From positions 1-64,000 of the IMG/VR virus record IMGVR_UViG_3300005264_000029: a stretch of 64,000 bases of DNA, one strand, 5' to 3'. Of this stretch, positions 3,625-43,367 are shown piece after piece (position 1 is the stretch's first letter; each line of letters starts with the position of its first letter). This DNA comes from a virus. Lineage: Duplodnaviria; Heunggongvirae; Uroviricota; Caudoviricetes. Below the pieces are notes generated by a model. That model searched no databases and was not told where the DNA came from. It was given only the letters and a program-made list of their open reading frames with translations. Made by a program: the position numbers and the translations under genes.

Positions 3625-3681
3625 ATGAAAATCGAGAACAAAGTTCAAGTTATGAACGGAGCGAAGAGAAGTGAATATTAG
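3625..3681 (+). CDS. 18-aa leader mini-ORF (MKIENKVQVMNGAKRSEY) overlapping GTG start of next gene
   Basis: paralogous to 19176..19232 (MVMKIENEVRVLNGVVAK); conserved at nt level. Confidence 0.25.
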   Translation: MKIENKVQVMNGAKRSEY

Positions 3682-4723: not shown

Positions 4724-4729
4724 AAACAA

Positions 4730-4749: not shown

Positions 4750-4777
4750 TATTAATATAATTAATGGGTGAAACGAA

Positions 4778-12678: not shown

Positions 12679-12749
12679 ATGTCCGAAAGCAAAGCTTGAG
12701 GTTATGAATGAAGTCCAAATGAAACAACGTGTAGAGAGGAACGAACGAA

Positions 12750-13318: not shown

Positions 13319-13334
13319 AAGATTTAAAAAGTAT

Positions 13335-13628
13335 TTATTTAAAAATACTTATAAGTCCAAATGCTGCAAGTACAATAATTCCTACTGCAATTAAAGCAAA
13401 TCCTGCGAACACAGTTGTTTGAGTACTTGCTACTCCGTCAACATATCCTGTATCATCCATTGTTAAGGATGTATTATCTACACATGGAGCAACTACTGGT
13501 CCTCCTAAACATGCATTATCTATTTGTGGAGTTGGTAATGCGTCTTTTACTTTAGCTATAACTAAATATCCGATCATAATTACTATTCCGATTCCTATTG
13601 CCGCGATGGCTATTTCCATAAATACCAT
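13335..13628 (-). CDS. small hydrophobic two-helix protein; candidate spindle-virus-type major capsid protein (VP1/VP3-like), paralog A
   Basis: N-term 'MVFMEIAIAAIGIGIVIMIGYLVIA' and C-term 'FAGFALIAVGIIVLAAFGLISIFK' are nearly identical to 13788..14015; fold class inferred. Confidence 0.45.
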   Translation of the reverse strand: MVFMEIAIAAIGIGIVIMIGYLVIAKVKDALPTPQIDNACLGGPVVAPCVDNTSLTMDDTGYVDGVASTQTTVFAGFALIAVGIIVLAAFGLISIFK

Positions 13629-13787: not shown

Positions 13788-14015
13788 ATGGTATTCATGG
13801 AAATCGCAATCGCAGCTATTGGAATCGGAGTGGTTCTAATGGTAGGTTACTTAGTTGTAGCTCAAGTTAAAGCAGCATTACCAACAGAAAGTTTGGATAA
13901 TGAAACAATTGATGGAATTAATTCCGCGCAAACAACTGTTTTCGCAGGTTTTGCATTAATCGCAGTTGGAATTATTGTTCTAGCAGCATTCGGTCTAATC
14001 AGTATTTTTAAATAA
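13788..14015 (+). CDS. small hydrophobic two-helix protein; candidate major capsid protein, paralog B
   Basis: 75 aa; shares N- and C-terminal helices with 13335..13628. Confidence 0.45.
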   Translation: MVFMEIAIAAIGIGVVLMVGYLVVAQVKAALPTESLDNETIDGINSAQTTVFAGFALIAVGIIVLAAFGLISIFK

Positions 14016-14029
14016 ATACTCTTTTGGCT

Positions 14030-15400
14030 TTTCACAATTCAAACTAAAGGTTTATAAACACTTAATTATTAATATTTCTTAATGACAAAAACTTCTTTAA
14101 AAGTTAGATTGCGAATCAACAAATATAAATACAATATTCTAAAAACATTATGTTTACATTCTAAAAATCTTTATAATCAAGCGAATTATTTAATACAACA
14201 ATATTATAAATATACTGGAAAATATTTAACTTATTATGATATGTATTATATTATGCGAAATCGTGAAAATTTAGAACATGAAATTAATTTTAAAAAATTA
14301 AAATCTGGTGTATCGCAACAAGTACTAATGATACTAGATACAAATTGGAAAGCATATTTTAGAAGTGTTAACGATTGGAAAAAAAATAAATCAAAATATA
14401 ATGGGTTACCAAAACCGCCTGGATATATAAAAGAATATAATAATTTAGTGTATACATATGTGGTATTTCAAAATAAAAATAAATATATTCAGTTGGAAAA
14501 AAAATTAGGAATAAACATAGATATACCAAAACAATTAATAAATAAAAATATAAAACAAATAGAAATAATTTCACGACGAGAATGTTTTGAAGCTGTGTTT
14601 GTGTATGATGACGCAGTAAAGTATAAACAAATTGAAAAGAATGATAATGTATTAGGAATTGATTTAGGATTAAATAATATAGCTACTTGTGTCAGTAATA
14701 ATATAAAACCGTTTGTAATTAATGGTAAACCGTTAAAATCAATAAATCAATATTCTAATAAAAAAATAGCAAAAACTAAAAGTTGCTTGGAACATAGGAA
14801 TACCGTTAAGACAAGTAAGAAGATTATACAATTATATTATAAACGTAATAATAAAATTAGTGATTATTTGCATAAGGCTAGTAGACTAATAGTTAATAAG
14901 TGCGTGGAGAATAATATCTCCAAAGTAATCGTTGGTGATATAAGTAAATCACTTACCAAGATTAATCTTGGTAAAAGAAACAATCAAAATTTCATAAATA
15001 TCTCATTAGGCCAGTTTGTTGATAAAATAAAATACAAACTTGAGAAGCACAATATTAAAACAATTATAACTAATGAGAGTTATACATCAAAGTGTTCATT
15101 CATTGATAATGATACACTTCCACAGAAATTAGATACCAGTAAGAAATTTGTATTTAGTGGTAAAAGAATTAAACGTGGAATGTATAGAACTAAGAATAAT
15201 ATCTTAATAAATGCTGATGTGAATGGTGCTTATAATATAATTAGAAAAGTAATACCAAAGTTTGATATTAATTTATTAAAGGATGGTATAGAGGGAGACA
15301 CTATGTGTCGTTGGTTACACCCACATAAATTAACTGTATAAGTTTACAGTCTTTATGGTATTCAAATATTATTTAAAACTAAAGGTTTATAAATAATTAA
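14030..15400 (+). mobile_element. IS200/IS605-family TnpB-only (IS1341-like) element or domesticated derivative
   Basis: TnpB ORF flanked by 'AAACTAAAGGTTTATAAA' at 14036 and 15374; no tnpA. Confidence 0.5.
14082..15341 (+). CDS. tnpB: TnpB/OrfB-like RuvC-fold protein; RuvC-II and zinc finger appear degenerate
   Basis: 'GIDLGLNNIATCV' (RuvC-I), 'NFINISLGQFVDKIKYKLEKHNIKTIITNESYTSKCS', 'NADVNGAYNIIRK' (RuvC-III); expected 'xEDL' reads 'VIVGDI' and only one Cys remains in the CxxC...CxxC region. Confidence 0.75.
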   Translation: MTKTSLKVRLRINKYKYNILKTLCLHSKNLYNQANYLIQQYYKYTGKYLTYYDMYYIMRNRENLEHEINFKKLKSGVSQQVLMILDTNWKAYFRSVNDWKKNKSKYNGLPKPPGYIKEYNNLVYTYVVFQNKNKYIQLEKKLGINIDIPKQLINKNIKQIEIISRRECFEAVFVYDDAVKYKQIEKNDNVLGIDLGLNNIATCVSNNIKPFVINGKPLKSINQYSNKKIAKTKSCLEHRNTVKTSKKIIQLYYKRNNKISDYLHKASRLIVNKCVENNISKVIVGDISKSLTKINLGKRNNQNFINISLGQFVDKIKYKLEKHNIKTIITNESYTSKCSFIDNDTLPQKLDTSKKFVFSGKRIKRGMYRTKNNILINADVNGAYNIIRKVIPKFDINLLKDGIEGDTMCRWLHPHKLTV

Positions 15401-18042: not shown

Positions 18043-18104
18043 ATAAAATGAACGAAGAGAATTTTAATTTACCGACTGAAGTGCAACGAAAGGAGGATAA
18101 ATAA

Positions 18105-19175: not shown

Positions 19176-19232
19176 ATGGTAATGAAGATCGAGAATGAAG
19201 TTCGAGTTCTGAATGGAGTGGTAGCGAAATGA
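19176..19232 (+). CDS. 18-aa leader mini-ORF (MVMKIENEVRVLNGVVAK) overlapping next gene start by ATGA
   Basis: paralog of 3625..3681. Confidence 0.25.
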   Translation: MVMKIENEVRVLNGVVAK

Positions 19233-19471
19233 AGACAAAAACAATAACAATTAGAAAAATTAAAAGGTCGTCAAAGCCAGTTAATGTTAATCCTGGAATA
19301 GTAACTATGAAAGCTGAGAAGTCTCCTAAATTACTGCGTAAGAGTAATGCAAAGCCTATAAAGAAAACAACTAAGTTGAAAGTAAAGAAATGTAAGCCGG
19401 CAAAGAAACTTAAAAAATCATTAGTATCTGCAGGTAATAAATTTAAAAAGGCTATACTTTCAAAAATTTAA
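19229..19471 (+). CDS. highly basic Lys-rich small protein (80 aa), probable DNA-binding protein
   Basis: about 35% K/R: 'KPIKKTTKLKVKKCKPAKKLKK'. Confidence 0.5.
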   Translation: MKTKTITIRKIKRSSKPVNVNPGIVTMKAEKSPKLLRKSNAKPIKKTTKLKVKKCKPAKKLKKSLVSAGNKFKKAILSKI

Positions 19472-19716: not shown

Positions 19717-20661
19717 ATGTCTGCATTTGGAGAGATAGGAGAAGTATCTGTACTTATTGATTATGAGGAATATATGAAACGTCTTGGTCACAAACCATCA
19801 TATATATATCCTTCAATGGTGGCACTGCGATGTTTCGTAAAGGAAGGATATAATTGGGAGAAGTATGAAGACTATAATAGATTCTTAATAAAACACACCG
19901 TTAATAAAAGATCTACTGCTTACTTTGATGTATTAAAGAAATTTGTTAAATGGAAATTTAAGGAAGATAGAGAATTAAAAAATATAGTACTTGAATCTAT
20001 TCAGATGACAGGTAAAAAAGCTAGAGATCCTAAACCAAGAAACTCTATAATTACCGAAGCTGAACAAATGAGAATAATTCAAAACATAAAAACACCAAAA
20101 CATCAATTAATAGCATGGCTTCAAAAAGAATCAGGTGTTCGTGCCGGTGATGTACTTCGTACTTTAAAAGATAATTTTAAAATGGGAATGTATACTGATG
20201 ATGATGGCAGTGTGAGAAAAGTAATGGATATTGTATTTGTTAAGAAAGGTGACAGAGTTGCAAAGATTCCTATTTTTAATCCACATTTAATTCAATACTT
20301 AAAAGTACATTTAGAAAATTTAGATGGTGATGAAGATCTAGCGTTTATTAATAGAGATGTTGTTAGTAAAAAAAATAAAGATAATGAATATGCACTTATT
20401 CGTAGAAACTATAATTTATATCATGCTGATCTGAAACAAGCTTGTGATGATCTTGGATATGACTCAGGACAATTCTCAACTCACGATTGGAGAAGAAATT
20501 TTGCAAATAGAATTTGGGTTGATGTTCTTAAGAAAAATGATATCGTGGCACTCCAACGTGCGATGGGTCATTCACAAGTTGAAACAACGGCAATCTATTT
20601 AAGACAATCAGGATTACAAAGTAGAGATATATACAAACAGTCATATGATTTATCTAAATAA
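19717..20661 (+). CDS. int: tyrosine recombinase/integrase (XerC/D-like)
   Basis: 'GVRAGDVLRTL' (Arg-I), 'THDWRRNFA' (H-x-x-R), 'GHSQVETTAIYLR' (catalytic Tyr). Confidence 0.8.
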   Translation: MSAFGEIGEVSVLIDYEEYMKRLGHKPSYIYPSMVALRCFVKEGYNWEKYEDYNRFLIKHTVNKRSTAYFDVLKKFVKWKFKEDRELKNIVLESIQMTGKKARDPKPRNSIITEAEQMRIIQNIKTPKHQLIAWLQKESGVRAGDVLRTLKDNFKMGMYTDDDGSVRKVMDIVFVKKGDRVAKIPIFNPHLIQYLKVHLENLDGDEDLAFINRDVVSKKNKDNEYALIRRNYNLYHADLKQACDDLGYDSGQFSTHDWRRNFANRIWVDVLKKNDIVALQRAMGHSQVETTAIYLRQSGLQSRDIYKQSYDLSK

Positions 20662-20679
20662 TTATAATTATTTAGATAA
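20650..20679. repeat. 30-bp perfect palindrome TTATCTAAATAATTA|TAATTATTTAGATAA overlapping integrase stop codon
   Basis: checked base by base; 'GATTTATCTAAATAATTA' repeated at 20706-20723. Confidence 0.85.
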
Positions 20680-20746
20680 TCCAAACGAAGTGTTAGCGAA
20701 GTGCAGATTTATCTAAATAATTAATGTAATTAGTACATAATAAAAA

Positions 20747-21930: not shown

Positions 21931-22161
21931 ATGGGAAAAGAAATGATAATTGTAACTCCAGAATTTCTAGAAGAAATATCGATGCATATGACACATGGAA
22001 TATTATGTGATAAAAAAGTACGTAAACCTAATGGAAGTATTGATGGTGAATTAGTTAATAAATATATTTTAGAAAAACTAAAGAAAGTTTATATTTTGAA
22101 AGTTTATATTTTAGGAGCTAAAGATAAGAACATTTCAATTAATAAAAATGAAATCAAATAA
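21931..22161 (+). CDS. hypothetical protein (76 aa)
   Basis: ORF track. Confidence 0.4.
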   Translation: MGKEMIIVTPEFLEEISMHMTHGILCDKKVRKPNGSIDGELVNKYILEKLKKVYILKVYILGAKDKNISINKNEIK

Positions 22162-24590: not shown

Positions 24591-25112
24591 ATGGAATATA
24601 AAAAGATCGAGAAACACAGCGTAGTAAAGATCTGTGAAATATGTGGTAAAGACTTTATAGATGAAACTAAAAGTCACTGTCAGAGAATCTGTGGATCGAG
24701 AACTGAAAGTTCGAGTTCCGATGGAAGCGAAGTGAAAGGAGGGAATAAAGAATGTCAATTAGAAAGAGATAGAAGACGACAGAGAGCATATTATAAATCT
24801 AATGATTCATATGCTGCAAAAGCTAAAAGAGCTACTAAAATCTATTATAAGAATAATACTAAAAAATGTTTAGCATACCAGCAGCTATATAGAATAGAGA
24901 ATCCAGAGGTTATTAAATATCATAATACGAACTGGAATAAAGATAATAGGTCAGAGTATAGTAGAAAATATAATAGATCCTGGAGATTAAAGAATTTAAA
25001 ATATGAACAGTTAAGTGATAAAATAAAATGGAGAATAAAAACTACTATTCCTATAGAAATTATACGTGAGAAATATTCAGAATTATCAGATACATTTATA
25101 AAATCCGCATAA
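24591..25112 (+). CDS. FCS-type zinc-finger protein paralog (173 aa)
   Basis: 'CEICGKDF...HCQRICGS'; C-term 'IPIEIIREKYSELS'. Confidence 0.5.
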   Translation: MEYKKIEKHSVVKICEICGKDFIDETKSHCQRICGSRTESSSSDGSEVKGGNKECQLERDRRRQRAYYKSNDSYAAKAKRATKIYYKNNTKKCLAYQQLYRIENPEVIKYHNTNWNKDNRSEYSRKYNRSWRLKNLKYEQLSDKIKWRIKTTIPIEIIREKYSELSDTFIKSA

Positions 25113-25134
25113 TACAGTAGCATTATGCGGATTT
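25101..25134 (+). terminator. 13-bp perfect stem-loop followed by T-run
   Basis: AAATCCGCATAAT-acagtagc-ATTATGCGGATTT then TTTT; unusually GC-rich. Confidence 0.5.
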
Positions 25135-25148
25135 TATAATATATAAAG

Positions 25149-25313: not shown

Positions 25314-25694
25314 ATGGAAGATAATCACGATAACATAATGTATCCGAAAGCATCGAAGACCGAAGGTCTGAGTTGCGATCGAAACGAAGTGAAGAGAGCA
25401 GTTAATAAAAAAGACTGGAAATTAGGTGATAAATTTATTAATGCTAGAAAATATAAATCTGGAGAGGATACATTTATTTACACTATATATCAGTTTCATA
25501 GTGACTGCACTAACTTTATATGTGCTAGATCAGAAGATGATTCATGTGGAATTTTATTTGAACCTGGAGAGATTATACCTATAAATGGAAAAATGTATAT
25601 AGAACTCATGGATACTAGAATAGCTAGAAAGGAACAGGAAGTAGCTGATCTACGAGCTGAGAGAAATGATATATTATATGGATTTAAAAAATGA
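25314..25694 (+). CDS. hypothetical protein (126 aa)
   Basis: ORF track; contains left arm of 58-bp inverted repeat. Confidence 0.45.
   Translation: MEDNHDNIMYPKASKTEGLSCDRNEVKRAVNKKDWKLGDKFINARKYKSGEDTFIYTIYQFHSDCTNFICARSEDDSCGILFEPGEIIPINGKMYIELMDTRIARKEQEVADLRAERNDILYGFKK
25343..25399. repeat. left arm of about 58-bp inverted repeat (partner 26594-26652)
   Basis: reverse complement matches partner with one indel. Confidence 0.8.
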
Positions 25695-25960
25695 TGAAAA
25701 AAATATCATATACGCAGCAGGAATTAAAAAATCATAAGAAAGCATACATATCCATAGCTCTACTTTTCGGTGGGGGAATATTAATAGTCTTTGAAAGTAT
25801 GTGGACATTTACTATCGGATGGTTCTCTATATGTCTAAGTTGGTTTCTTATTGCAGCTACAGCATACTCGCATGGATGGGAATTAAAAAGAATATCCGAG
25901 CACGAAGTGCGAGATTATGACCGTAGCGAAGTGGAGAGAATAAGTATGGATGATGACTAA
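25691..25960 (+). CDS. membrane protein (89 aa)
   Basis: ORF track; two TM helices. Confidence 0.45.
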   Translation: MMKKISYTQQELKNHKKAYISIALLFGGGILIVFESMWTFTIGWFSICLSWFLIAATAYSHGWELKRISEHEVRDYDRSEVERISMDDD

Positions 25961-26072
25961 TATCTTAATTACATATACTTCTTTCATTTCGCTACGTTGC
26001 ACTACACTCGTGAATATTATTAAAGCTAACGCTTTAATTACATATATAAATTATTAACCATATATAATATAT

Positions 26073-26552
26073 ATGAATGAATTTCTAAAGACATTAATAG
26101 AAGGTCTAGTATTTACATTATTAATTATGATCATTGTGTTCTCAGGGATTTATGGAATGTTATTCGTGTTAGATACTAAATATAACACGCACGTCCTTAC
26201 AGAACCTCTACCAGTTTTTAAACATAATAATATACAGAATTCTCATAGTGAATATAGATCAGGCCTATTACATCATATGGCTAGGGAATTAAACTATACA
26301 GTGAATGTAGTCGCTGGAGCAAGTATGGAGCCTACTATTTTCGACGGTGATAATTTTATATGCGATCCTAAATTAACTCCTCAGATAGGAGATATAGTTC
26401 TAGTTAATAGAATTAATAATACCGAGTATGTACATAGAATACGCGCTATTTATTCAGATCATGTAGTTACTCAAGGTGATGATAATAACTATATAGATCC
26501 AGATATTAATATGTCTGATATAGAATGTGTGGTCGTAGGTGTATACTACTGA
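26073..26552 (+). CDS. type I signal peptidase (S26/Sec11-like; SF clan)
   Basis: N-terminal TM anchor; 'VVAGASMEPTIFDGD' (Ser box), 'GDIVLVNRINNTEYVHRIRA' (His where S24 has Lys), 'GDDNNYIDPD' (GDNN box). Confidence 0.6.
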   Translation: MNEFLKTLIEGLVFTLLIMIIVFSGIYGMLFVLDTKYNTHVLTEPLPVFKHNNIQNSHSEYRSGLLHHMARELNYTVNVVAGASMEPTIFDGDNFICDPKLTPQIGDIVLVNRINNTEYVHRIRAIYSDHVVTQGDDNNYIDPDINMSDIECVVVGVYY

Positions 26553-26593
26553 TACCTCATTACACTTCACTATCAATCGTAACCTCAAGCTTC

Positions 26594-26652
26594 GCTCTCT
26601 TCACTTCGTTTCGATCGTAACCTCAGACCTTCGGTCTTCGATGCTTTCGGAT
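26594..26652. repeat. right arm of about 58-bp inverted repeat
   Basis: see 25343-25399. Confidence 0.8.
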
Positions 26653-26675
26653 TTTCGGATACTACTAAATAGAAA

Positions 26676-26703
26676 CATTTATAAATACTTAAGTACTTAT
26701 ATA
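26676..26703 (+). promoter_or_regulatory. class-A promoter 'CATTTATAAATACTTAAGTACTTATATA'
   Basis: motif match upstream of ATG 26713. Confidence 0.45.
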
Positions 26704-26712
26704 TTTAACAAG

Positions 26713-26976
26713 ATGATGAATGGTAAATTAACAGATAGATTAAAACATTTAGATACATTAAAAGCTAATGATCTAAAGGAGATGGAGGACCATTATCAGC
26801 GATGGTCTCGTAAATGTGGTGAATGTGACTGCTGCGATTTTAATTATTCCTTAGTTCAAATATATAGATTCGAATCAGAATATCACATACAGGATAGGCG
26901 TAAAGGAGATATTCATGATAGAGTAGAATCATATTTAAATAAATTAAATATACATCCAACTGTATATAAGAAATAA
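26713..26976 (+). CDS. hypothetical Cys-containing protein (87 aa)
   Basis: 3' part of track ORF 26539; start after promoter. Confidence 0.4.
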   Translation: MMNGKLTDRLKHLDTLKANDLKEMEDHYQRWSRKCGECDCCDFNYSLVQIYRFESEYHIQDRRKGDIHDRVESYLNKLNIHPTVYKK

Positions 26977-27231: not shown

Positions 27232-27594
27232 ATGGCAAAAGAAATAAAAGTGTGCGCCGCATGCGATAGAGATTTTAAAGTAAATAAAGATAGTCATATA
27301 ATTAGATGTCCTATATGTAGACAAGCTAATAATAATTATAAATATAATTATAGAACTAGGCGTTCAGATTTCATTAAAAAATATAATACTTACTTCGATT
27401 TAAATCGAATTAATAGTACAACCGGATTCTTTAATCTAGGACTTAATAAATGCTCATTAGAATTAGGAACTAAAATAGATAACATACAGGATTATGATAA
27501 ACATATAGAACATATAAGATCGATAATTTCAAGACTGCAAAGTGATATCTTAAAACTTAAAGTATTAAGTCATGAACGGAACGAAGAGAAGTGA
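27232..27594 (+). CDS. FCS-type zinc-finger protein (120 aa)
   Basis: 'CAACDRDF...RCPICRQANNNYKY'. Confidence 0.5.
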   Translation: MAKEIKVCAACDRDFKVNKDSHIIRCPICRQANNNYKYNYRTRRSDFIKKYNTYFDLNRINSTTGFFNLGLNKCSLELGTKIDNIQDYDKHIEHIRSIISRLQSDILKLKVLSHERNEEK

Positions 27595-27627
27595 ATATTA
27601 CTAAACTAGAATCACTAAAAAATAAAA

Positions 27628-28191
27628 ATGAATGAAATCATTATGAATAATATAGTAAAAGAAAATATAGAACTCAATAATAAAATAGAGATTTTATCAA
27701 ATACAATAGAGACTTTAAGGATAAAGATTAAAAATCAAGCAGATCATATTACTAGAGAAAATAAAATTAGGTCAAATGAAAGGCCTAAGATTATAAAGAT
27801 AGTATCTCCTACTAAGGAATCTGAAGGTCATGAGATTAAAAGATTACATAAACTCATACATAACTTAACTGAGAAACATTTAAAATTACAAGAGAAATCT
27901 GTAAAATATATAGCAAGGAATATGCAACTACAAGATGAACTTAAGCGCGCATCTTATTTAGATATTACAGGTAAATTCATATTCGCTAAATGTAAATTAA
28001 AATCCTATACAGGCTATGTACTTAAAGAAACTCTAAGACATATAATTATCGAAACAACAGCAGAAGATCCATATCAATATATATTTCATAAGAATGAAAT
28101 AAGAGGCGTGAAGATCTTTCATGATTTATATACTGAGGATCGAGAGACAAAAACTGAGTTTCGAACGAAACTCCGTGAAGTGAGGAACTAA
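27628..28191 (+). CDS. coiled-coil protein (187 aa)
   Basis: ORF track. Confidence 0.5.
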   Translation: MNEIIMNNIVKENIELNNKIEILSNTIETLRIKIKNQADHITRENKIRSNERPKIIKIVSPTKESEGHEIKRLHKLIHNLTEKHLKLQEKSVKYIARNMQLQDELKRASYLDITGKFIFAKCKLKSYTGYVLKETLRHIIIETTAEDPYQYIFHKNEIRGVKIFHDLYTEDRETKTEFRTKLREVRN

Positions 28192-29881: not shown

Positions 29882-30070
29882 ATGAATAATATAAAAATAA
29901 TAAAAAGTTTTGATTCATATAAAACTTATATTTTAGGAGTTAAAACAAAAATGAATATAAAGCAATTAAGGAGCTTAAAAAAGTTTTTTAATATGAGTAT
30001 TATAAAAAGTAATAATCTTTATAATATGGACTTACTAAGGACTATAAAAAGGAGTTATAAAAATGAATAA
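29882..30070 (+). CDS. hypothetical K/N-rich protein (62 aa)
   Basis: ORF track. Confidence 0.35.
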   Translation: MNNIKIIKSFDSYKTYILGVKTKMNIKQLRSLKKFFNMSIIKSNNLYNMDLLRTIKRSYKNE

Positions 30071-30359
30071 AGAAATAAAAAAATATGAAGTAAGAGAAAT
30101 AAACACAAGTGAAGTAATGTATAAACATTGCTTTAATAATGAAATTATTTATTTAGGTAATGATTTATATTTATTAGATATTGACAGTTTAGGCGATAGA
30201 GATTTTATATTATATGAATTTGAAGAAGATTTTATATTAGAAAATTCTACAAAAATAAATGATTCAGATTTAACAACAGAAGATATAAAAAACGAAATTA
30301 AATATTTAAAAACTAGTTTAGAAAATGATTTAGCAATTATAAAAAGTTTAGAAAAATGA
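30063..30359 (+). CDS. hypothetical protein (98 aa)
   Basis: ORF track. Confidence 0.4.
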   Translation: MNKEIKKYEVREINTSEVMYKHCFNNEIIYLGNDLYLLDIDSLGDRDFILYEFEEDFILENSTKINDSDLTTEDIKNEIKYLKTSLENDLAIIKSLEK

Positions 30360-30535
30360 ATAATTCAAAAATATATAAAGGTTATAAAATTATTTTCGAA
30401 CCAAAATTTAAAGGTTTTAAAGTAAATGTAAGTAAAAATAATTCTTTAGAAAGTGGACAAGAGTTTTTAAGTAGTAATATTGATACTGCTTTTAAACTTT
30501 CTAAAGAGTGGATAAATTTGGAGTTAAAAAAATGA
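30356..30535 (+). CDS. hypothetical protein (59 aa) with 'PKFKGFK' box
   Basis: ATGA overlaps; box shared with 30840 gene. Confidence 0.3.
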   Translation: MNNSKIYKGYKIIFEPKFKGFKVNVSKNNSLESGQEFLSSNIDTAFKLSKEWINLELKK

Positions 30536-30843
30536 ATAAAAAATATTATAGTATTGAAGAGTTTAAAGAATTAAAGGAATACTCAAAAGAGTATAATAAT
30601 ATTAAAAATGATTTAAAGGATTTTAAAAAATCTTATTGTTTTTATATTATAAAAATTAATAAAGAAAATATTGCTTTATTTGTATTTGATAAATATGAAT
30701 ATAATATAAATTTATACTATCAAAACGAAATTATAATTTATAATAATTTTGATAGTTTTGATTATTCAAGTATTGAAAAAAATTTAATAGATGAATATTA
30801 TTTAAAAGATTATATAACTAAAAAACTTGAGGTTTTAAAATGA
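30532..30843 (+). CDS. hypothetical protein (103 aa)
   Basis: track ORF 30508; start at ATGA junction. Confidence 0.4.
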   Translation: MNKKYYSIEEFKELKEYSKEYNNIKNDLKDFKKSYCFYIIKINKENIALFVFDKYEYNINLYYQNEIIIYNNFDSFDYSSIEKNLIDEYYLKDYITKKLEVLK

Positions 30844-31067
30844 ATAACCTATTCAAAAAAGATTTATTAAAACCTAAATTTAAAGGTTTTAAATTGTCTA
30901 ATAAAACAAAAGTTAAATTAAAATTTATTATTAAACATATTATATTTAATAAATTTTTTAATCATTTATTTAGTAGAAAAGAAAATTTAAATTTATATAA
31001 TGTTTTAACAAGTAAATTAAACCACAGAAAAATAAATATAAAAAAACATTATATTATTATAAACTAA
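30840..31067 (+). CDS. hypothetical basic protein (75 aa)
   Basis: ORF track. Confidence 0.35.
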   Translation: MNNLFKKDLLKPKFKGFKLSNKTKVKLKFIIKHIIFNKFFNHLFSRKENLNLYNVLTSKLNHRKINIKKHYIIIN

Positions 31068-31071
31068 AAAA

Positions 31072-31167
31072 ATGAATATACCAAATATATTAAAAAATAA
31101 AAGAAACGGCGACTTTATAGAAATTGAGTATAAAGAAAATTTAAATAATATGGAGTTAAGAAAATGA
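31072..31167 (+). CDS. hypothetical peptide (31 aa)
   Basis: ATGA coupling into RadC gene. Confidence 0.2.
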   Translation: MNIPNILKNKRNGDFIEIEYKENLNNMELRK

Positions 31168-31544
31168 AAAAAATAAAAATTTCAAATAGTGACGCAGTTT
31201 TTAAGAATATTAAAAAACATTTTGATTTATACCAAGAAAATTTTATATTAATTGGTATAAATTCAAATAGTGAAATATTATTAAATGAAGTAATTTTTAA
31301 AGGGGGTGTAAATAATTGTAACATTGATTTAAAGATTATATTTAAAAAATTATTATTAAATAATTGTACTAGTTTTTTTATTGCACACAATCACCCAAGT
31401 AAAAATTTAAATCCAAGTCAATCAGATTTAACAATAAATAATAAAATAAAAAAAGCTAGTGAAATATTAGATTTAAAATTATTAGATAGTTTAATATTTA
31501 GTGATAATAATTTTTATTCGTGTTTTGATAATGAGGTTTTATAA
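31164..31544 (+). CDS. radC: RadC-like JAB/MPN domain protein
   Basis: 'FIAHNHPSKNLNPSQSDL' matches JAB H-x-H-x(7)-S-x(2)-D. Confidence 0.65.
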   Translation: MKKIKISNSDAVFKNIKKHFDLYQENFILIGINSNSEILLNEVIFKGGVNNCNIDLKIIFKKLLLNNCTSFFIAHNHPSKNLNPSQSDLTINNKIKKASEILDLKLLDSLIFSDNNFYSCFDNEVL

Positions 31545-31968
31545 AGTGGTTAAATCAAAAATTATATTTATCAAAACTAAAGAAAATTGTTTTAAACAAA
31601 TTGGGAGTTTAAAATCTTTACATTTGGTTAAATGTAAAGTCATAAATGAATATATTACTTTAAATAATATTGTAAATAGACATAATCAAATTAAAGAAAA
31701 TACTACTTTAATAATTTTACATAATAAAAAAGAAGTGGAATTTAAATATAAAAAATCTAAGGAATTTAAATATATAAATTATGATAAATTACAAAACTTT
31801 TATTTTAATTTTTTACACGGATTTTTAAACAACTTTGAAAATATTTATATTATATATTTGAAGAGAAATAAACAATATTTAAAAGTTACACCTTTTAGTA
31901 ATATAAATAAAAATAGAGATAATTTTAAAGACATAATCACACCACTTTTAAAATTATATAATGATTAA
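31531..31968 (+). CDS. hypothetical protein (145 aa)
   Basis: track ORF 31501; ATG 31531 follows 'GAGGTTTTA' SD. Confidence 0.4.
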   Translation: MRFYKVVKSKIIFIKTKENCFKQIGSLKSLHLVKCKVINEYITLNNIVNRHNQIKENTTLIILHNKKEVEFKYKKSKEFKYINYDKLQNFYFNFLHGFLNNFENIYIIYLKRNKQYLKVTPFSNINKNRDNFKDIITPLLKLYND

Positions 31969-32047
31969 AAATAAAGAACGATATTAAAAATTTAATTTAA
32001 ATTAAAATATCTATTTGAATTAAAACGAAATTAAAGAACACAAACCG

Positions 32048-32110
32048 TGCCTAGATCTCGATGCCTAGATTTTAAAGAACAAACTGTGCCTAGATTTTTT
32101 TCTAGGCATT
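32048..32110. promoter_or_regulatory. second TGCCTAGA motif cluster (4 copies)
   Basis: GTGCCTAGATCTCGATGCCTAGATT...TGTGCCTAGATTTTTTTCTAGGCA. Confidence 0.45.
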
Positions 32111-32314
32111 TAGATAATCATTATTTTTTAACTATCTTAAAACATACCTTAAACTATAATATACTTATACTTAGAATATATAAAAGCATATAAGAAGACT
32201 TTTTTAAAAAGTAATGTTATGACATAACTTAAAACCTTTATACTTAAAATTTAAAATAAATATTATAGTGTCACTTGTCATTATATAAAAGTGTGTGTAA
32301 AATACACCACCTTA

Positions 32315-32396
32315 ACGAAAGGTTTATAAATACTTAAGTACTTATATAATTATCAAGTGAAGAGATAAAAACTTTTTACTTAAACCTTAAAAAATG
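32315..32396 (+). promoter_or_regulatory. promoter-leader copy 2; 32270-32347 near-identical to 36050-36127
   Basis: 'CGAAAGGTTTATAAATACTTAAGTACTTATATA' plus leader. Confidence 0.5.
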
Positions 32397-33368
32397 AAAA
32401 AAGAAATAAATAAAAAAACTTATGATTTAAAAAAATCACAAGATAATAAAAATAGTGAAGAAGTTATAAAAGCTAATATAAAAAATGTTAGTAAATTTAA
32501 TTTTAAAAAAAGTAATGAAATAATTAAAACTAATAATAATAAATTAACAACTTCAAGAGTTGCAATAAATAAAAAAGTTGAAGAGTTTAAATTTAATTTG
32601 GAACAAAAGACAAAAGAAGAAAATAAAAAACTAAGAGAAGAAACAAAAGAAGAAGAAGAAAACCAAGAGATTATAAACAAAACTAGAAGAGAGTTAAATT
32701 ATAGATTTAATTCTTTTTATAATTTTAAACCAAGTGTTTTAAACAATATGGATAAAATTAAAAACTTTGAATTTTATGAAAAAGGCGAAATTTTAAAAAC
32801 TTTTAAAGACGATAAAAAAGAGGGTTTAGTTTATTATCAAACTAATAATAATAATGTTAATTGTTATAGTTTAGGTTTTAGCTTTTGGAGTATTTACGAC
32901 ACTTTAAATTTATTAAATAATAGGTCAAGTGTTTTTTATCAAAATAAAATATACTTTTCAAATAGAGTTAGATTTAATTATAAAAATGAAAAAGATTCTT
33001 TTAATTTTCATACCGATTATTTAATAAAAAACTTTTCAAGTATTACAGAATTAAAAGAATATTACGAAAAGAACAAAAATAAAATCGAAAACAATATAAA
33101 TAAAAAACTTGAAATTGTAGAAAAAGAATTAAACCTTTATAATAAATTGTTTAAATCAAATTCAGATTTTAAAAAACATTTCCAAGAAGAAAAACTATAT
33201 TATATTATAAATAATTTTGGTTCAAGTATAAGAGATAACACTTTAAAAGATTGGGATAAAAAAAATAAATCAAATTACAATAATGAATTAATCGAAATAC
33301 TAAAAGATTTAAATTTAAAATTAGACTTTTCAAATAGATTTGATATTAAAGTTAAAGAGGTTTTATAA
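32394..33368 (+). CDS. large K/N/E-rich hypothetical protein (324 aa)
   Basis: ORF track; ends ...KEVL*. Confidence 0.5.
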   Translation: MKKEINKKTYDLKKSQDNKNSEEVIKANIKNVSKFNFKKSNEIIKTNNNKLTTSRVAINKKVEEFKFNLEQKTKEENKKLREETKEEEENQEIINKTRRELNYRFNSFYNFKPSVLNNMDKIKNFEFYEKGEILKTFKDDKKEGLVYYQTNNNNVNCYSLGFSFWSIYDTLNLLNNRSSVFYQNKIYFSNRVRFNYKNEKDSFNFHTDYLIKNFSSITELKEYYEKNKNKIENNINKKLEIVEKELNLYNKLFKSNSDFKKHFQEEKLYYIINNFGSSIRDNTLKDWDKKNKSNYNNELIEILKDLNLKLDFSNRFDIKVKEVL

Positions 33369-33369
33369 A

Positions 33370-33594
33370 ATGGTTTCTATGCAATATATAAAAGAATTAG
33401 AATTACAAGACGGAATAAGTTTAAACGCTTATTTTGAATATATTTATTTATCTTTAATTAATGGACAACGAACACAAGTAAAAGAATTAATTAATAAATT
33501 AAATAAACCACAGAAATTAAATTTTCACGATTATTTAAATATGGTTTATCAAAACACAGAATATAAAAACGAATTAATAAGAGGTTTAATTTAA
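33370..33594 (+). CDS. hypothetical protein (74 aa)
   Basis: ATG after 'GAGGTTTTATAAA'. Confidence 0.4.
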   Translation: MVSMQYIKELELQDGISLNAYFEYIYLSLINGQRTQVKELINKLNKPQKLNFHDYLNMVYQNTEYKNELIRGLI

Positions 33595-33595
33595 A

Positions 33596-33997
33596 ATGGA
33601 AAATATAGAAAAATTAAAAAACAAAGTTAAAGAATTAAACAATATTATTTATAATATGGAACAAGAAAAATTTTTAACTAAGGTTGAATGTGTAAAATTT
33701 AAAAATAATAATAATGGTGATGTTATTAATTTATTAAGAATATTAGATAAAGAATTAAAAAATAAATTAGAAATTAGAAATTTATATAGTTGTAAATTAA
33801 AAACTAAAAACTTTCTAGTGTCTTTTAATTATTGTAATAGAAAAAATAAAATATTATTTACTTTTGAAAAAGGTTATTTTTCTCATTGTGAATATATAGA
33901 CATAACAACAATAATTAAAAGATTTAAAACTTTAAGATTTGAATTATATTATAATATAGAATATAAAGAAATTAGCTTAAATATAAATATTAAATAA
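33596..33997 (+). CDS. hypothetical protein (133 aa)
   Basis: ORF track. Confidence 0.45.
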   Translation: MENIEKLKNKVKELNNIIYNMEQEKFLTKVECVKFKNNNNGDVINLLRILDKELKNKLEIRNLYSCKLKTKNFLVSFNYCNRKNKILFTFEKGYFSHCEYIDITTIIKRFKTLRFELYYNIEYKEISLNINIK

Positions 33998-33999
33998 AA

Positions 34000-34161
34000 A
34001 TGGAACGAAAAGAATATTTATTAAAAATAAAACAAACTAAAGAAGATATAAAAAACGCAGAAACTAAATATAAAGATTATTCAAATAAAAACGATATTAT
34101 ACATAATCTTAAAATAAGTTTAGATATACAAGAATTTAATTTAAAAGAGGGCAGATTTTAA
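34000..34161 (+). CDS. hypothetical protein (53 aa)
   Basis: ATG-to-stop frame. Confidence 0.3.
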   Translation: MERKEYLLKIKQTKEDIKNAETKYKDYSNKNDIIHNLKISLDIQEFNLKEGRF

Positions 34162-34163
34162 AA

Positions 34164-34409
34164 ATGGAATATTTGAAAACTAAAGATAATTTAAATTTAA
34201 TAGGAAAGAGAGCAAGAATAAAAAACAATGTTTTAGGATATTGTAGTTTTTTATATAATTGTGAAGGAATTATAAAAAATGTTAATGATAAAATTTATCT
34301 CGAATTTAATAAAATTGCATATAGAGATGAAACAGACAAAATAAATAAATCTCCTTTTGGTATGAATGGGGTTTATATTTGTTATGGAGTTATAGAGGTT
34401 TTAAATTAA
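34164..34409 (+). CDS. hypothetical protein (81 aa)
   Basis: ORF track; ends ...IEVLN*. Confidence 0.4.
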   Translation: MEYLKTKDNLNLIGKRARIKNNVLGYCSFLYNCEGIIKNVNDKIYLEFNKIAYRDETDKINKSPFGMNGVYICYGVIEVLN

Positions 34410-34410
34410 A

Positions 34411-34650
34411 ATGAGTCAATATAAAAAAGATTTAATAAAAGAAATGAAAAGTTTTAATATTGAAATTAATAAAAAAGGTATTATGAGCAAAGCACATATA
34501 TTATTAATATTAAATACTATTGATTCAATAAACGATTTAAATACTTTATATATTATAGGTCATAGCTTTTTTGAACAATTAGTATTTTTAAAAATTGATT
34601 CAAGAGATTATTTAAAAGTTTTACAAAGTAGATACAATATTAAAAAATGA
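34411..34650 (+). CDS. hypothetical protein (79 aa)
   Basis: ORF track. Confidence 0.4.
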   Translation: MSQYKKDLIKEMKSFNIEINKKGIMSKAHILLILNTIDSINDLNTLYIIGHSFFEQLVFLKIDSRDYLKVLQSRYNIKK

Positions 34651-34859
34651 AACAGAAAACAGAAATTAAAATAAAAACTAAAAGAGAAAATAAAGACTTT
34701 TCAAATAAGGATATAAAAGAAATAAGAAAAGAAATAAGAAAGAGCGTTAATAATTCACAGACTACCGAAGAAGATTTAAATTTAAAGCTTAATGAAATTG
34801 ATAATGTTTTAAAGAACAAGAAGAAAACACATAATAAATATTATATGAGAGAATTATAA
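34647..34859 (+). CDS. hypothetical basic protein (70 aa)
   Basis: ORF track. Confidence 0.4.
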   Translation: MKQKTEIKIKTKRENKDFSNKDIKEIRKEIRKSVNNSQTTEEDLNLKLNEIDNVLKNKKKTHNKYYMREL

Positions 34860-34912
34860 AACCTATTGGTTTTATATATCGACTAAATAAAATGAAAGGA
34901 GAATTATAAAAA

Positions 34913-35149
34913 ATGAATGAGGAACAAAGCGAAGAATTAATAAAAGTTTTAATTGATGTAAAAGAAGAATTAAAAAATATTGTAAAGGTCTTAAAACCTA
35001 AGCAAGAAATAAAAACCGAAATAGTTAAAAAACATTTATTATCTATGCAAGAGCAAAGACTTATAAGATTTAAAAATTATGTTACTTCAAATAATTTTTA
35101 TAATACATTAACAGAAAAACAAAAAGAAGAGTTATTAAATTTAAAATGA
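34913..35149 (+). CDS. hypothetical protein (78 aa)
   Basis: ORF track. Confidence 0.4.
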   Translation: MNEEQSEELIKVLIDVKEELKNIVKVLKPKQEIKTEIVKKHLLSMQEQRLIRFKNYVTSNNFYNTLTEKQKEELLNLK

Positions 35150-35418
35150 TGAAACAATATAAATATAAAATACAATGGTTAATTGATGTTAATAAGGACT
35201 ATAAATTTAATAATGAAATTAAACAATTATTAAATATTATAGGAGTAAGAAGTTTAGATAAAATTGTTTTAAGAGATAATGATTATAAAATTATTGATAC
35301 ATATAATAGTTTTATTTGTTTTCCTTATGGCTTAGCAGAAAAAGAAACTTTAAAATATATTAAAAAACAAGTTAAGAAAAATAATAAAATTGTTTATGTT
35401 GATTTTGTGAGGACTTAA
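35146..35418 (+). CDS. hypothetical protein (90 aa)
   Basis: ORF track. Confidence 0.4.
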   Translation: MMKQYKYKIQWLIDVNKDYKFNNEIKQLLNIIGVRSLDKIVLRDNDYKIIDTYNSFICFPYGLAEKETLKYIKKQVKKNNKIVYVDFVRT

Positions 35419-35422
35419 AAAA

Positions 35423-35593
35423 ATGAGTTGTAAATATAAATTAAAATCTAATAAACATAATTTAAATTGTTTATCTTTATTTGAAGTTGTAGAATATATA
35501 AAACTTTATGATAAGGATAATACTATAAATAAAATTGAAATAACAAAAGACACAATAAACAAAGAACAAATAAAACAATACTATAATATTTAA
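35423..35593 (+). CDS. hypothetical protein (56 aa)
   Basis: ATG-to-stop frame. Confidence 0.3.
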   Translation: MSCKYKLKSNKHNLNCLSLFEVVEYIKLYDKDNTINKIEITKDTINKEQIKQYYNI

Positions 35594-35767
35594 ACTTATT
35601 ATTACTTTTATATATTGTTTATTAAAGTCTTATTAGCTTTGATAAACTCATTTTTTAAAAGTTTAAGTATTAGTACAATTTTAAAATAAAGGTCTTAAAT
35701 AAACCTTTATATAATTCTATTAAATAAAACAAATTAGATATATAATAAAAAATATTTTTATACAGAT

Positions 35768-35935
35768 CATGCCTAGATTGAAAGTATGCCTAGATTTTTA
35801 AACTTACTTAGATGCCTAGAGTGAAATAATATTCACTACTTTAATATATTATATTGTTCTTAAAATAATTAAAAAATTAATGAAATTATATTATAATTTA
35901 AATTTAAATCAAGTGACATAAGTCTAGGCATCTAC
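35768..35935. promoter_or_regulatory. third TGCCTAGA motif cluster (4 copies)
   Basis: CATGCCTAGATTG...TATGCCTAGATTT...GATGCCTAGAGTG...GTCTAGGCATC. Confidence 0.45.
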
Positions 35936-36094
35936 TTTAAAGTTGTGTATAGAGTGTTTTAATACTTGTTAGTATCTTATATTAAATATTAGAAGAGATA
36001 ATAAAAAAGTAATGTTATGACACCCTAAAAATTAAAATACTCTATACACTCATATATTTAATTATATAAAGTGTGTGTAAAATACACCACCTTA

Positions 36095-36180
36095 ACGAAA
36101 GGTTTATAAATACTTAAGTACTTATATATTTATCAAGTGAGAGAGTCACAACATAGACACTTTTACTTAAACTAAAAATG
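36095..36180 (+). promoter_or_regulatory. promoter-leader copy 3
   Basis: near-identical to 32315-32396. Confidence 0.5.
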
Positions 36181-37120: not shown

Positions 37121-37268
37121 AAATGGTAAAAATTAATGAAGAATATATTATAGAACAAGGTCAAGAAGTTTATGGGGATATTAGAAATACAATAGATGAA
37201 GTTTTATTTAATGAGGATTATTAAAATGAGTGTAACGAATTTTAATAAACTGAACGAAACGAAGTGTA

Positions 37269-37451
37269 GTGAGGAATACTAAAATGAATGTAAAAGAATT
37301 AAAACAATTACTTACTAAGTTTGATGATAATATTGAAGTGTTAATATCTATGGATAGTGAGGGAAATATGTATCATAATTTAGATGATATTTATCATAAT
37401 AAAACTCAATTGGTTTTATATCCAAATGATGAAGATATAGAGGTAGATTAA
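37269..37451 (+). CDS. hypothetical 'MNVKEL' protein (60 aa); paralog of 41404 gene
   Basis: ORF track; CGAAACGAAGTG leader upstream. Confidence 0.4.
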   Translation: MRNTKMNVKELKQLLTKFDDNIEVLISMDSEGNMYHNLDDIYHNKTQLVLYPNDEDIEVD

Positions 37452-37453: not shown

Positions 37454-37633
37454 ATGGAAATTAATACAAGACTTGAAATGAGCGAATTAATACTTGATTT
37501 AATTGTAAAGAAAAGAAACACAGATTTAACACCAATTGAAAATAGAAGTTTAGAAATATTACAAAGAGTAAGAGAAGAGGATTTGAGCGATAGTGAAATA
37601 CCGAATGAAGTAAAACGAAATGATGATAATTAA
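37454..37633 (+). CDS. hypothetical protein (59 aa) ending 'LSDSEIPNEVK...'
   Basis: C-terminal box repeated at end of 37779 gene. Confidence 0.35.
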   Translation: MEINTRLEMSELILDLIVKKRNTDLTPIENRSLEILQRVREEDLSDSEIPNEVKRNDDN

Positions 37634-37778: not shown

Positions 37779-38351
37779 ATGGAAAATAGATATAATTTAA
37801 GAATTGGAAACGATAGTAAGATTTACATTAATGGTGAAGTTATTAATGATGAAATATTCACACAAGAAAAATGTGGGTATGTTGTTGAAGAAAGAGATGA
37901 AACTATTAATAATCTAATTAATTGGATTAGTGAAAATTCAAGTAATCACGAAAGAGAATTAATGAAAGATGATTTAAAATATTTAATGAGTTGTACCGAT
38001 AAATATTTATTTAGTGATGTATCTACAAATAGTTATATTTTAGAAGAAACTGATATTTGTGTATTTGATAATATTTGTGAGGACATTTTAAATTTAAATC
38101 GAAATGGTAATAAAGTTATGAAAAGATATAATGTATCTTTTTTAGTATATGAAAGAGTTTGTCAATACATTGAAACTGATGAAACTGATGAAGATAAAAT
38201 ATTTGAAATGGCAGTAGATAAAGCGACAAAAGAACAAGAAAAAGTATATTGGCAAGTTGATAATCATATGATTGGAACTGATGTAGAAATTGAGAATTTG
38301 AGCGATAGCGAAATACCGAATGAAACGAAGTGTAATAAGGGGTTAGATTAA
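37779..38351 (+). CDS. acidic hypothetical protein (190 aa)
   Basis: ORF track. Confidence 0.5.
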   Translation: MENRYNLRIGNDSKIYINGEVINDEIFTQEKCGYVVEERDETINNLINWISENSSNHERELMKDDLKYLMSCTDKYLFSDVSTNSYILEETDICVFDNICEDILNLNRNGNKVMKRYNVSFLVYERVCQYIETDETDEDKIFEMAVDKATKEQEKVYWQVDNHMIGTDVEIENLSDSEIPNETKCNKGLD

Positions 38352-43222: not shown

Positions 43223-43367
43223 GCATACTTTTTATTTAATTTGATTTATGTATAATAAAACATATAATCTCTTTAAGATACTCGTTTCGTTACACTTCAA
43301 TCGTGACTTAATGTTCATTAAGATCAAGTGCCTAGACTTATACAAATTTATATTAATTCTTCCCACA

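Follow-up and report, generated by a model that had tools for sequence, protein, structure and literature searches.

The subject of this report is a segment of about 1.3 kb within a 64,000-nt stretch of viral DNA (positions 1 to 64,000 of the IMG/VR record IMGVR_UViG_3300005264_000029, Caudoviricetes), which will be referred to as the window. In this segment, the two arms of a nearly perfect inverted repeat bracket the gene of a small signal peptidase, and both arms belong to a dispersed family of short repeats located at the junctions between genes, here called junction elements. The left arm (25342..25399, + strand) lies within the coding sequence of a gene for a protein of 126 aa (25314..25694, +), as the sequence-only reading of this DNA had observed, and occupies codons 10-29 of that open reading frame (ORF). 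Next come a gene for a small hydrophobic protein of 88-89 aa (25691..25960, +), with two hydrophobic stretches in its translation and no family match, and the peptidase gene (26073..26552, +). The right arm (26594..26652, - strand) is non-coding: it comes after the stop codon of the peptidase gene (26552) and before a promoter-like motif (26677-26707), beyond which gene 26716 starts. Because the left arm covers codons 10-29 of the first gene, the repeat does not enclose three genes, as first described, but two whole genes and the 3' three quarters of a third.

The inverted repeat itself was confirmed, and proved to be 1 nt wider than reported (25342-25399 versus 26594-26652). Complementarity of the arms is 100% over the outer 31 nt and 96% over the inner 28 nt, which contain one substitution and a 1-nt indel; the reverse-complement match extends over 59 columns with 96.6% identity (E=2e-22, blastn-short in the 64-kb window), 57 of the 59 positions being identical. 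An 8-nt tandem duplication (TTTCGGAT twice, 26645..26660, +) is present at the outer end of the right arm and, if it is allowed for, the complementarity continues for 2 nt more. Directly inside the right arm there is a degenerate second unit (26555..26593, -; E 0.14), a partial tandem copy of the 3' half of the element with a 38-nt period. In the left arm, the order of the parts is a mini-hairpin (AGACC-GAA-GGTCT), GAGTTGCGAT, a box (CGAAACGAAGTG) and AAGAGAGC. The arms had been described as the most GC-rich sequence nearby; they are indeed among the GC-richest 60-nt windows of the region (0.43 for the left and 0.50 for the right arm, against ~0.27 overall), but other copies of the element (24670-24729, 25870-25959) are similar. 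The repeat is also confirmed in sequencing reads. An independent Logan assembly of run SRR6301447 contains a 1309-bp contig that is exactly window 25343-26651, while the contig of the left flank ends at 25371; such a break is the behaviour of a k=31 de Bruijn graph at a perfect 31-mer, and is uninformative on orientation. Searches for the arms elsewhere gave only a chance match for an 18-mer in IMG/VR, in a contig of 60% GC, and no match for a 27-mer in JGI metagenome contigs, and no relative carrying the arms was found in any collection searched.

The sequence-only reading had pointed out a recurrent motif in the arms. This motif is real, and is the conserved box of the junction-element family: CGAAACGAAGTG occurs 12 times at up to 2 mismatches (1.5 expected), and its CGAAGTG core 11 times (1.4 expected). 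The arms are therefore not a unique pair of sites, but members of a dispersed family of 14 copies. This number was obtained at E<=0.03 with a covariance model built from the seven full-length copies (at 3630, 12681, 19187, 24694, 25351, 25893 and, on the reverse strand, 26643), and nhmmer agrees with it. The element is specific to this genome and about 47 nt long, reaching 58 nt in the arms, which score 57.7 bits (left, E 7e-16) and 58.4 bits (right, E 4e-16). Its layout, deduced from the alignment, is ATCGA or TCCGA, a hairpin of 4-5 bp with a GAA or AAA loop, GAGTTnYGA, GRAGCGAAGTG and a purine-rich tail. Within the family, the arms resemble each other most, with 97% identity compared with ~60-77% for the other copies. 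As a side observation, copies lying close to each other are more alike than distant ones.

In the + strand gene block, 12 of the 13 copies detected by the covariance model are on the + strand and thus co-oriented with transcription, the sole exception being the right arm; the other - strand copy (43280-43325) is located at the convergent boundary with the - strand block. As many as 11 of 15 boxes fall within 60 nt upstream of the next ORF start, compared with a mean of 2.6 in random sets, none of which (0/10,000) reached 11. The distance from box to ATG is 16-21 nt in six copies. In other cases the box itself supplies the start: its RTG is the start ATG at 4778 (the ligase gene) and at 19229, and the ENA annotation calls its GTG at 3671 as a start. 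The purine-rich tail of several copies, read directly from the sequence, is Shine-Dalgarno-like (AAGGAGGA, GTGAGGAA).

Compensatory changes preserve the mini-hairpin among the copies. All the 31 cells of the hairpin in the seven full-length copies are paired, and both sides change in four of the five pairs. The covariation score is 0.705, compared with 0.32 in shuffles (reached in 0/500), and the pairing collapses when partners are slid by 1-3 columns.

Among the individual copies, those at 3630..3676 (+, distant but full-length, 63.1 bits), 12681..12746 (+, full-length, upstream of gene 12750) and 19187..19234 (+, full-length, containing the ATG at 19229) are far from the locus. Closer to it, the direct copy upstream (24694..24742, +) lies inside ORF 24591-25112, is 77% identical to the left arm and differs from it by three compensatory changes in the hairpin. 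A further copy (25891..25945, +; 56.4 bits) lies at the 3' end of the small hydrophobic-protein gene. The next two downstream are at the 3' ends of ORF 27232-27594 (27547..27596, +; E 6e-7) and of ORF 27628-28191 (28138..28185, +; E 2.5e-5). We considered that the copy in ORF 24591 might be an in-frame insertion relative to the paralogue at 23851, and rejected this, as the paralogues align throughout with a gap of 1 aa only. A peptide-level explanation of the repeat is likewise disfavoured: the box is unchanged in copies that are not coding (20681, 42582 and the right arm), and those at 37255 and 38321 read it in another frame than the arms do. A consensus scan found no -35/-10 pair of the sigma-70 type within the arms, and the promoter-like matches in the region equalled the shuffled expectation. 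A bulge-helix-bulge, an Xer/dif-like core and a replication origin were each considered as well, and no such motif is present in the sequence.

Some copies are part of mini-ORFs of 18-19 codons (3625-3681, 12704-12763, 18048-18104 and 37226-37282), including the 18-aa one that contains the copy at 3630. These mini-ORFs either stop at the following gene's start codon or overlap it (MKIENKVQVMNGAKRSEY, MNEVQMKQRVERNERNECN, MNEENFNLPTEVQRKEDK, MSVTNFNKLNETKCSEEY), and may be leader peptides or translational-coupling devices. Elsewhere (37585-37633 and 38296-38351), adjacent genes have near-identical C-terminal peptides (LSDSEIPNEVKRNDDN, LSDSEIPNETKCNKGLD), encoded by ~32 identical nucleotides which are followed by the box.

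The gene that contains the left arm bears on how the segment may have been assembled. The protein encoded by gene 25314 has a single homologue in 5.8 billion clusters, P0154 (112 aa, 52% identity), which is encoded on another scaffold from this sample and also in a metagenome assembly at NCBI; the family gave no match in JGI metagenomes, and no closer relatives were found in the collections searched. P0154 aligns from residue 31, and only residues 31-116 are conserved, so that the first 30 aa, within which the arm falls, are found in this genome only. At the DNA level, similarity to the related contigs L016 and L017 is 75% over 25404-25566. Its onset is 5 nt past the inner end of the left arm (in this one case only), and both flanking regions are unrelated between the window and the loci of the homologue. 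As far as the sequence comparison goes, the left arm thus sits exactly at a mosaic breakpoint. The box of the arm contains an in-frame GTG (25389), which precedes the conserved NKKDW by 12 nt. Most simply, a leader bearing the element would have been fused in frame to an imported gene core, and on this reading the presence of an arm inside a coding sequence is a consequence of the fusion.

When the RNA between the arms was folded, the suggestion of a long-range structure was borne out, at least as a prediction: a stem joining left and right arm is strongly predicted, and dominates both the minimum-free-energy and the centroid structure of the 1.4-kb sense RNA. Over 58 bp, the arm duplex is worth -109.8 kcal/mol in the + (sense) RNA and -105.3 kcal/mol in the - RNA, the former being more stable because the single substitution gives a G.U pair in the sense RNA. 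A second, local pairing is nested within the first. A degenerate inverted copy of the element (25972..26022, -) begins ~30 nt after the copy at 25891-25945 and pairs with it; the predicted hairpin has -39.5 kcal/mol in sense RNA, with a z score of -4.74 (0/200 shuffles), compared with -30.4 kcal/mol and a z score of -2.7 in antisense RNA. No other copy of the element has an inverted partner within 400 nt.

The enclosed peptidase gene codes for a protein of 159 aa. The boxes GASMEPT, GDIVLV...HRIR and GDDNN and the hydrophobic N-terminal helix recognized earlier are all present in ORF 26073-26552, with the putative catalytic S84 in GASMEPT, H121 in HRI and D136 in GDDNN, and with a transmembrane helix at about residues 3-39. 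The assignment to the Sec11 type, which had been left to be decided between families S26 and S24, is supported by the family as a whole. Against Pfam, the single sequence matches PF00717 (Peptidase_S24) with 35.8 bits, above the gathering threshold of 23.3, and PF10502 (S26) with 22.3 bits, the cut-off being 22.9. In NCBIfam, the closest family is archaeal signal peptidase I (1.1e-7), followed by bacterial signal peptidase I (1.2e-6) and, more weakly, UmuD (1.2e-4), all of them below the curated cut-offs (31.9 versus 51.85 bits for TIGR02228, and 28.5 versus 47 for TIGR02227). An exhaustive HMMER search of 1.84 billion representatives returned 275 matches at E<=1e-3 and 12 at E<=1e-10; the closest homologues are proteins of 135-170 aa with the same architecture. 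Invariant residues in 18 homologues are G82, S84, M85, P87, H121, R122, G135, D136 and, at the C terminus, Y159. A family profile matches human SEC11C (2.2e-6) and SEC11A (1e-5) best, and these are its closest relatives of solved structure; bacterial signal peptidase I comes next (8e-5), with much poorer values for UmuD and LexA (0.24-1). In the alignment, the conserved segments SMeP, ivHRi and GDnn of the family correspond to SMEP, IVHRV and GDNN of human SEC11A/C, the histidine being aligned with that of SEC11. The AlphaFold (AF2) model (pLDDT 83) shows the N-terminal helix (residues 3-39) and a clan SF beta core, for which Foldseek retrieved LexA, UmuD, SipA, SEC11A and SpsB, all with probability 1.0.

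Judging from these alignments and from the model, the protein is a minimal, membrane-anchored Ser/His signal peptidase of the Sec11/SipW/archaeal type (clan SF). With the type I signal peptidases of this group (MEROPS S26B) it shares the SM-P serine box, the GDNN box, an N-terminal anchor in the membrane, the clan SF fold and, where the bacterial enzymes have Lys, a His (HRI). The viral protein, however, is much smaller (135-170 aa in the family) and scores under the curated NCBIfam cut-offs (31.9 versus 51.85 bits). Its family is a small one, with motifs of its own (RNDIQ, ICD and a C-terminal CVVVGVxY), and is so far known only in AT-rich, virus-like metagenomic contigs.

These relatives often stand beside large Laminin_G_3 genes; in one contig (L012), the peptidase gene is directly upstream of a 1178-aa Laminin_G_3 gene. 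None of these distant homologous peptidase loci (L007-L015) has a flanking inverted repeat or the CGAAGTG motif. The peptidase and its family alignment gave no match in IMG/VR, and the alignment only found weak matches to Anaeroplasma signal peptidases in GTDB genomes; a word-indexed protein search with the peptidase, and one with the gene that follows the right arm, returned only the query itself. In the window, a 2510-aa Laminin_G_3 protein (50289-57821, -) starts with a classical Sec signal peptide (MNKIFSKFLIFFLMSLTLVSVASA/TT), and is a candidate substrate of the peptidase. It is a reasonable inference that the enzyme processes exported or virion-surface proteins.

As regards the source of this DNA, the window was compared with the ENA metagenome scaffold DOMB18-1_SAMN06288063_METAG-scaffold_45 (126,202 bp), which it matches in reversed orientation. 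Over the 20 kb compared, the sole difference is a 15-nt tandem duplication at ~22083-22112 (GAAAGTTTATATTTT twice in the window and once in the scaffold), an in-frame length polymorphism between assemblies of the same population. The window has a GC content of ~27%, falling to only 16-20% across 30000-36000, and its skew does not switch around 25-26 kb. From 1 to 43 kb the genes, most of them small ORFans, form a block on the + strand; the other block is on the - strand and encodes two giant Laminin_G_3 proteins. Recognizable genes code for a TatC homologue, an SPFH/Band 7 protein, an ATP-dependent DNA ligase, TnpB, a tyrosine recombinase and RadC. The homologue of TatC, the twin-arginine translocase, is ORF 732-1436 (+; PF00902, E=1e-22) and is carried by the same virus-like element as the signal peptidase; the SPFH/Band 7 gene (2242-3621) comes after it. 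Since no capsid or terminase gene was recognized in the parts of the window examined, the term virus is inferred from gene architecture. Megablast and tblastn searches of the INPHARED phages gave no match, and nothing similar was found either there or in IMG/VR. No tRNA and no Rfam family at its gathering threshold was detected in the window; at E<=1, the sole Rfam match was a spurious, miRNA-like one on the hairpin at 25096-25139. This hairpin, directly 3' of the stop codon of gene 24591-25112, has a perfect 18-bp stem and an 8-nt loop, is followed by a T/A-rich tract and is terminator-like.

Two other repeated features of the window should be mentioned. Its longest inverted repeat (13326-13421 versus 13929-14024; 96 nt, 88%) is explained by two divergent paralogous genes for small hydrophobic (probable membrane) proteins (13335-13628, -, and 13788-14015, +), just upstream of the TnpB/IS605 OrfB gene (14082-15341). 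In addition, a promoter-like motif, (A)GGTTTATAAATACTTAAGTACTTATATA, which is TATA-box-like with a palindromic spacer, recurs upstream of genes at 4729-4757, 26677-26707, 32325-32353 and 36105-36133. A variant precedes TnpB (~14049), another is present in the related contig L016 (769-803), and no match was found in IMG/VR. The copy beyond the right arm (TTTATAAATACTTAAGTACTTATATA, 26677..26707, +) is one of the four and starts the next transcription unit (gene 26716-26976). The ATG at 26716 is at the transcript start expected from the motif, which suggests a leaderless mRNA.

The interpretation that we tentatively prefer, and hold at a little less than an even chance, is that a sense and an antisense copy of the junction element bracket a module acquired by recombination and fold its transcript into a long stem. 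Junction elements would punctuate the long co-directional block of small genes, normally standing 16-21 nt upstream of the next start codon or supplying it, and may act in the single-stranded sense transcript as intercistronic modules for initiation, processing or stability. They may also serve as patches of homology for the exchange of gene modules, by analogy with the promoter-early stem-loop (PeSL) cassettes of T4-type phages. On this interpretation, the 1.2-kb segment, with the core of gene 25314, the small hydrophobic (probable membrane) protein and the Sec11-type peptidase, would have been joined to its neighbours at junction elements, one of them inverted, and the N-terminal 30 codons of gene 25314 would be the fused, element-bearing leader. 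The antisense copy, at the unit's 3' end and immediately ahead of the promoter that follows, would pair with the left arm over 58 bp in the sense transcript, and the nested local pair (25891-25945/25972-26022) would form a hairpin of ~50 bp between the genes of the hydrophobic protein and the peptidase. The likeliest effect would be a 3'-end or processing barrier, together with sequestration of the start region in the left arm.

Several points weigh against this interpretation. That both arms are on one transcript is assumed. The element has no recognizable promoter, and its role in expression is suggested by position only. Individual mini-hairpins are no more stable than shuffled sequence (z from -0.2 to -1.6), the covariation of the hairpin is among paralogous copies only, and some of the copies in coding sequence encode similar peptides (..NEVKR.., ..NETKC..), which may indicate a role at the peptide level. 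The asymmetry between sense and antisense duplex fits use at the RNA level, but is weak evidence for it, because the same G.U bias can be obtained, in the absence of selection, from C-to-T pressure on C-rich inverted copies in a G-rich coding strand. No close relative was found that carries the arms and could show covariation between them. Finally, the 97% identity of the arms, as opposed to ~60-77% for the other copies, could reflect a recent inverted duplication devoid of function.

This last possibility is the main rival: the right arm would be a recent inverted copy of the left one, produced either by template switching or when the module was inserted into the loop of what had been a local hairpin element, and the pair would be a neutral relic, with the RNA stem and any occasional homologous inversion being incidental. 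We regard it as a serious contender, though on balance unlikely. The exceptional likeness of the two arms (97% identity, versus 60-77%) speaks in its favour, as do the sharp end of similarity at the element borders, the signs of slippage at the right arm (the partial tandem copy and the 8-nt tandem duplication), the homologous peptidase loci that are without any such repeat, and the local pair at 25891-25945/25972-26022, which displays the appearance that an uninterrupted hairpin element would have. It accounts less well for the fact that both inverted copies of the + strand gene block fall in one 1.3-kb module, and that the sense strand folds better than the antisense strand; moreover, an unselected, near-perfect inverted repeat of 58 bp would be expected to decay or rearrange in a recombining genome.

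A further reading is that the arrangement is a programmed device. Either a secretion module (the small hydrophobic protein and the Sec11-type peptidase) would be switched or excised between hairpin-bearing elements, in the manner of an integron or of PeSLs and possibly in an archaeal virus, or the 58-bp stem would direct excision or processing of the three-gene mRNA as in rRNA operons. This we consider unlikely.

The sequence-only reading had proposed an invertible or excisable segment as an alternative to the long-range RNA structure. Of these, the RNA stem is strongly predicted, whereas there is no adjacent recombinase, no target-site duplication and no useful flipped product, and the segment is most likely not a dedicated invertible or transposable DNA element. 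Were it a DNA inversion switch, recombination between the arms, either homologous or site-specific, would flip 25400-26593 and turn the three-gene module off, as gene 25314 would be truncated and the genes of the small hydrophobic protein and of the peptidase would become antisense. Flipped molecules would be recognized by junctions such as GATAACATAATGT + arm + GAAGCTTGAGGTTACG: on the left, left flank, arm and the reverse complement of 26593 downward (...AAGAGAGCGAAGCTTGAGGTTACG); on the right, the reverse complement of 25400 upward (...TTTTTTATTAACT), then GCTCTCTTCAC..., arm and right flank. A long near-perfect inverted repeat flanking a segment is what such a switch requires, and homology patches of <50 bp have been reported to be sufficient for recombination in phage T4 (PMC2839356). 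A candidate agent exists too, in the form of a tyrosine recombinase closest to XerA (19717..20661, +), encoded in the same gene block 4.7 kb upstream and having a partial element (the box, 20681-20703) directly after its stop codon. However, it is the only recombinase found among the ORFs scanned (those of >=150 aa across the window, plus smaller ones at 20.7-29.4 kb), and neither the three enclosed genes nor their neighbours at 20.7-29.4 kb match any recombinase family. With at least 14 copies in the family, site-specific recombination would be hazardous. After flipping, the fusion products would have only 31 or 39 aa, and the longest antisense open stretch is 69 codons, hence there is no alternative coding end of the shufflon type; no outward-facing promoter motif is present in the segment either. 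The window and the ENA scaffold, two assemblies, share the same orientation, the Logan contigs being uninformative in this respect. Therefore, a dedicated switch appears improbable, although homologous inversion between the 58-bp arms may take place at low frequency. The region after the recombinase stop codon (20648-20720) deserves a separate mention: it contains a palindrome with a 15-bp stem (TTATCTAAATAATTA/TAATTATTTAGATAA), two CGAAGTG boxes and a direct repeat of ATTTATCTAAATAATTA, and could be an att-like or regulatory site.

The virion RNA polymerase of phage N4 recognizes its promoters as DNA hairpins. In a similar way, the junction element could be a strand-specific promoter, possibly read as a DNA hairpin, and the inverted right arm would then drive an antisense transcript across the peptidase module. 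The fixed spacing of 16-21 nt between box and ATG and the covarying hairpin, with its 4-5 bp stem and 3-nt purine loop, would suit a promoter, as would the tail AAGTGARAGAG, which also follows the TATA-like motif at 32355 and 36139, near the expected start of transcription. Even so, no gene for an RNA polymerase was seen in the window, hairpin and box are ~20 nt apart, unlike in N4 promoters, and several copies are inside coding sequence, which leaves this explanation no more probable than a dedicated switch. Least probable of all is a non-autonomous transposable cassette, either composite or similar to a miniature inverted-repeat transposable element (MITE), with the arms as its terminal inverted repeats: the repeats are inverted with sharp outer ends, copies exist at many sites and a TnpB (IS605 OrfB) gene, the only one of transposase type, is present at 14082-15341, but the flanks (CATAATGT and TTTCGGAT) differ and show no target-site duplication, the cassette encodes no transposase, the 1.3-kb unit has no second copy in 70 kb of scaffold, all the other copies of the element are single and unpaired, and IS200/IS605 elements are not known to use terminal inverted repeats.

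If the interpretation based on paired junction elements is correct, an AT-rich, uncultivated virus-like element organizes its block of small genes by means of a private family of hairpin-bearing repeats, which both punctuate expression and mark the sites of module swapping; the idea developed for PeSLs and for repetitive extragenic palindromes (REP) would thereby be extended to a lineage far removed from theirs. For long-range RNA pairing in a viral polycistronic message, the pair that brackets the peptidase module would offer an obvious test case. In addition, the combination of a TatC homologue, a minimal Sec11-type peptidase and a giant Laminin-G protein with a signal peptide suggests that the virus brings parts of its own export and processing machinery.

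It remains to compare the repeats with known systems. Inverted repeats bracket a DNA segment also in the Hin/Gin/Cin systems, in fimS, in the invertons of Bacteroides and in shufflons, from which the present locus differs by the lack of an adjacent invertase, by its 58-bp arms that come from a multi-copy family and by a flipped state with neither an alternative coding end nor a promoter read-out. Long-range stems are known to guide RNA processing, as in the 16S and 23S stems of rRNA operons, and RNase III sites are found between the early genes of phage T7. With these the locus shares complementary flanks of a kb-sized segment, a predicted long duplex and an intercistronic or end-of-unit position. 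However, the stem would here enclose protein-coding genes and have its 5' strand within a reading frame, and neither a bulge-helix-bulge motif nor a defined internal loop for RNase III is present. To the processing stems of rRNA operons, the inverted pair, with its span of 1.2 kb, is similar in geometry only.

REP sequences and the bacterial interspersed mosaic elements (BIME) that they form are extragenic palindromes of enterobacteria. They are cellular, present in hundreds of copies and usually arranged as closely spaced inverted pairs, fold in intercistronic mRNA and can act as 3' stabilizers or attenuators. Like them, junction elements are GC-richer than their surroundings, hairpin-forming and dispersed, stand in transcribed intercistronic or 3' regions in either orientation, and occur in clusters; in contrast, no RAYT-type transposase is present here, and the arms are 1.2 kb apart, with one of them in annotated coding sequence.

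A close parallel is that with the PeSLs, mobile regulatory cassettes of T4-type phages (PMC2839356, PMC4122927) whose crossovers have been mapped to composite stem-loop junction motifs, one of them inside the loop (PMC2839356). Both are short composite repeats with a stem-loop, located before small ORFan genes in a dense co-directional region, and both would offer homology for modular shuffling; PeSLs coincide with breakpoints of insertion or replacement between related genomes, as does the left arm in the single case observed here. Conversely, the junction element has no recognizable sigma-70-type promoter, and its stem is a 4-5 bp mini-hairpin with a GAA loop and not a G/C-tract terminator; PeSLs flank their cassettes as direct repeats, while here one copy is inverted; and mini-circles and crossovers are known for PeSLs, whereas a single breakpoint was observed here. 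The repeat family is new, but of a general kind that is already known. By analogy, the junction-element family would work most like PeSL cassettes and REP/BIME repeats, but it is a member of neither group; a sigma-70 promoter and a RAYT transposase are absent, and its sequence and architecture differ from theirs.

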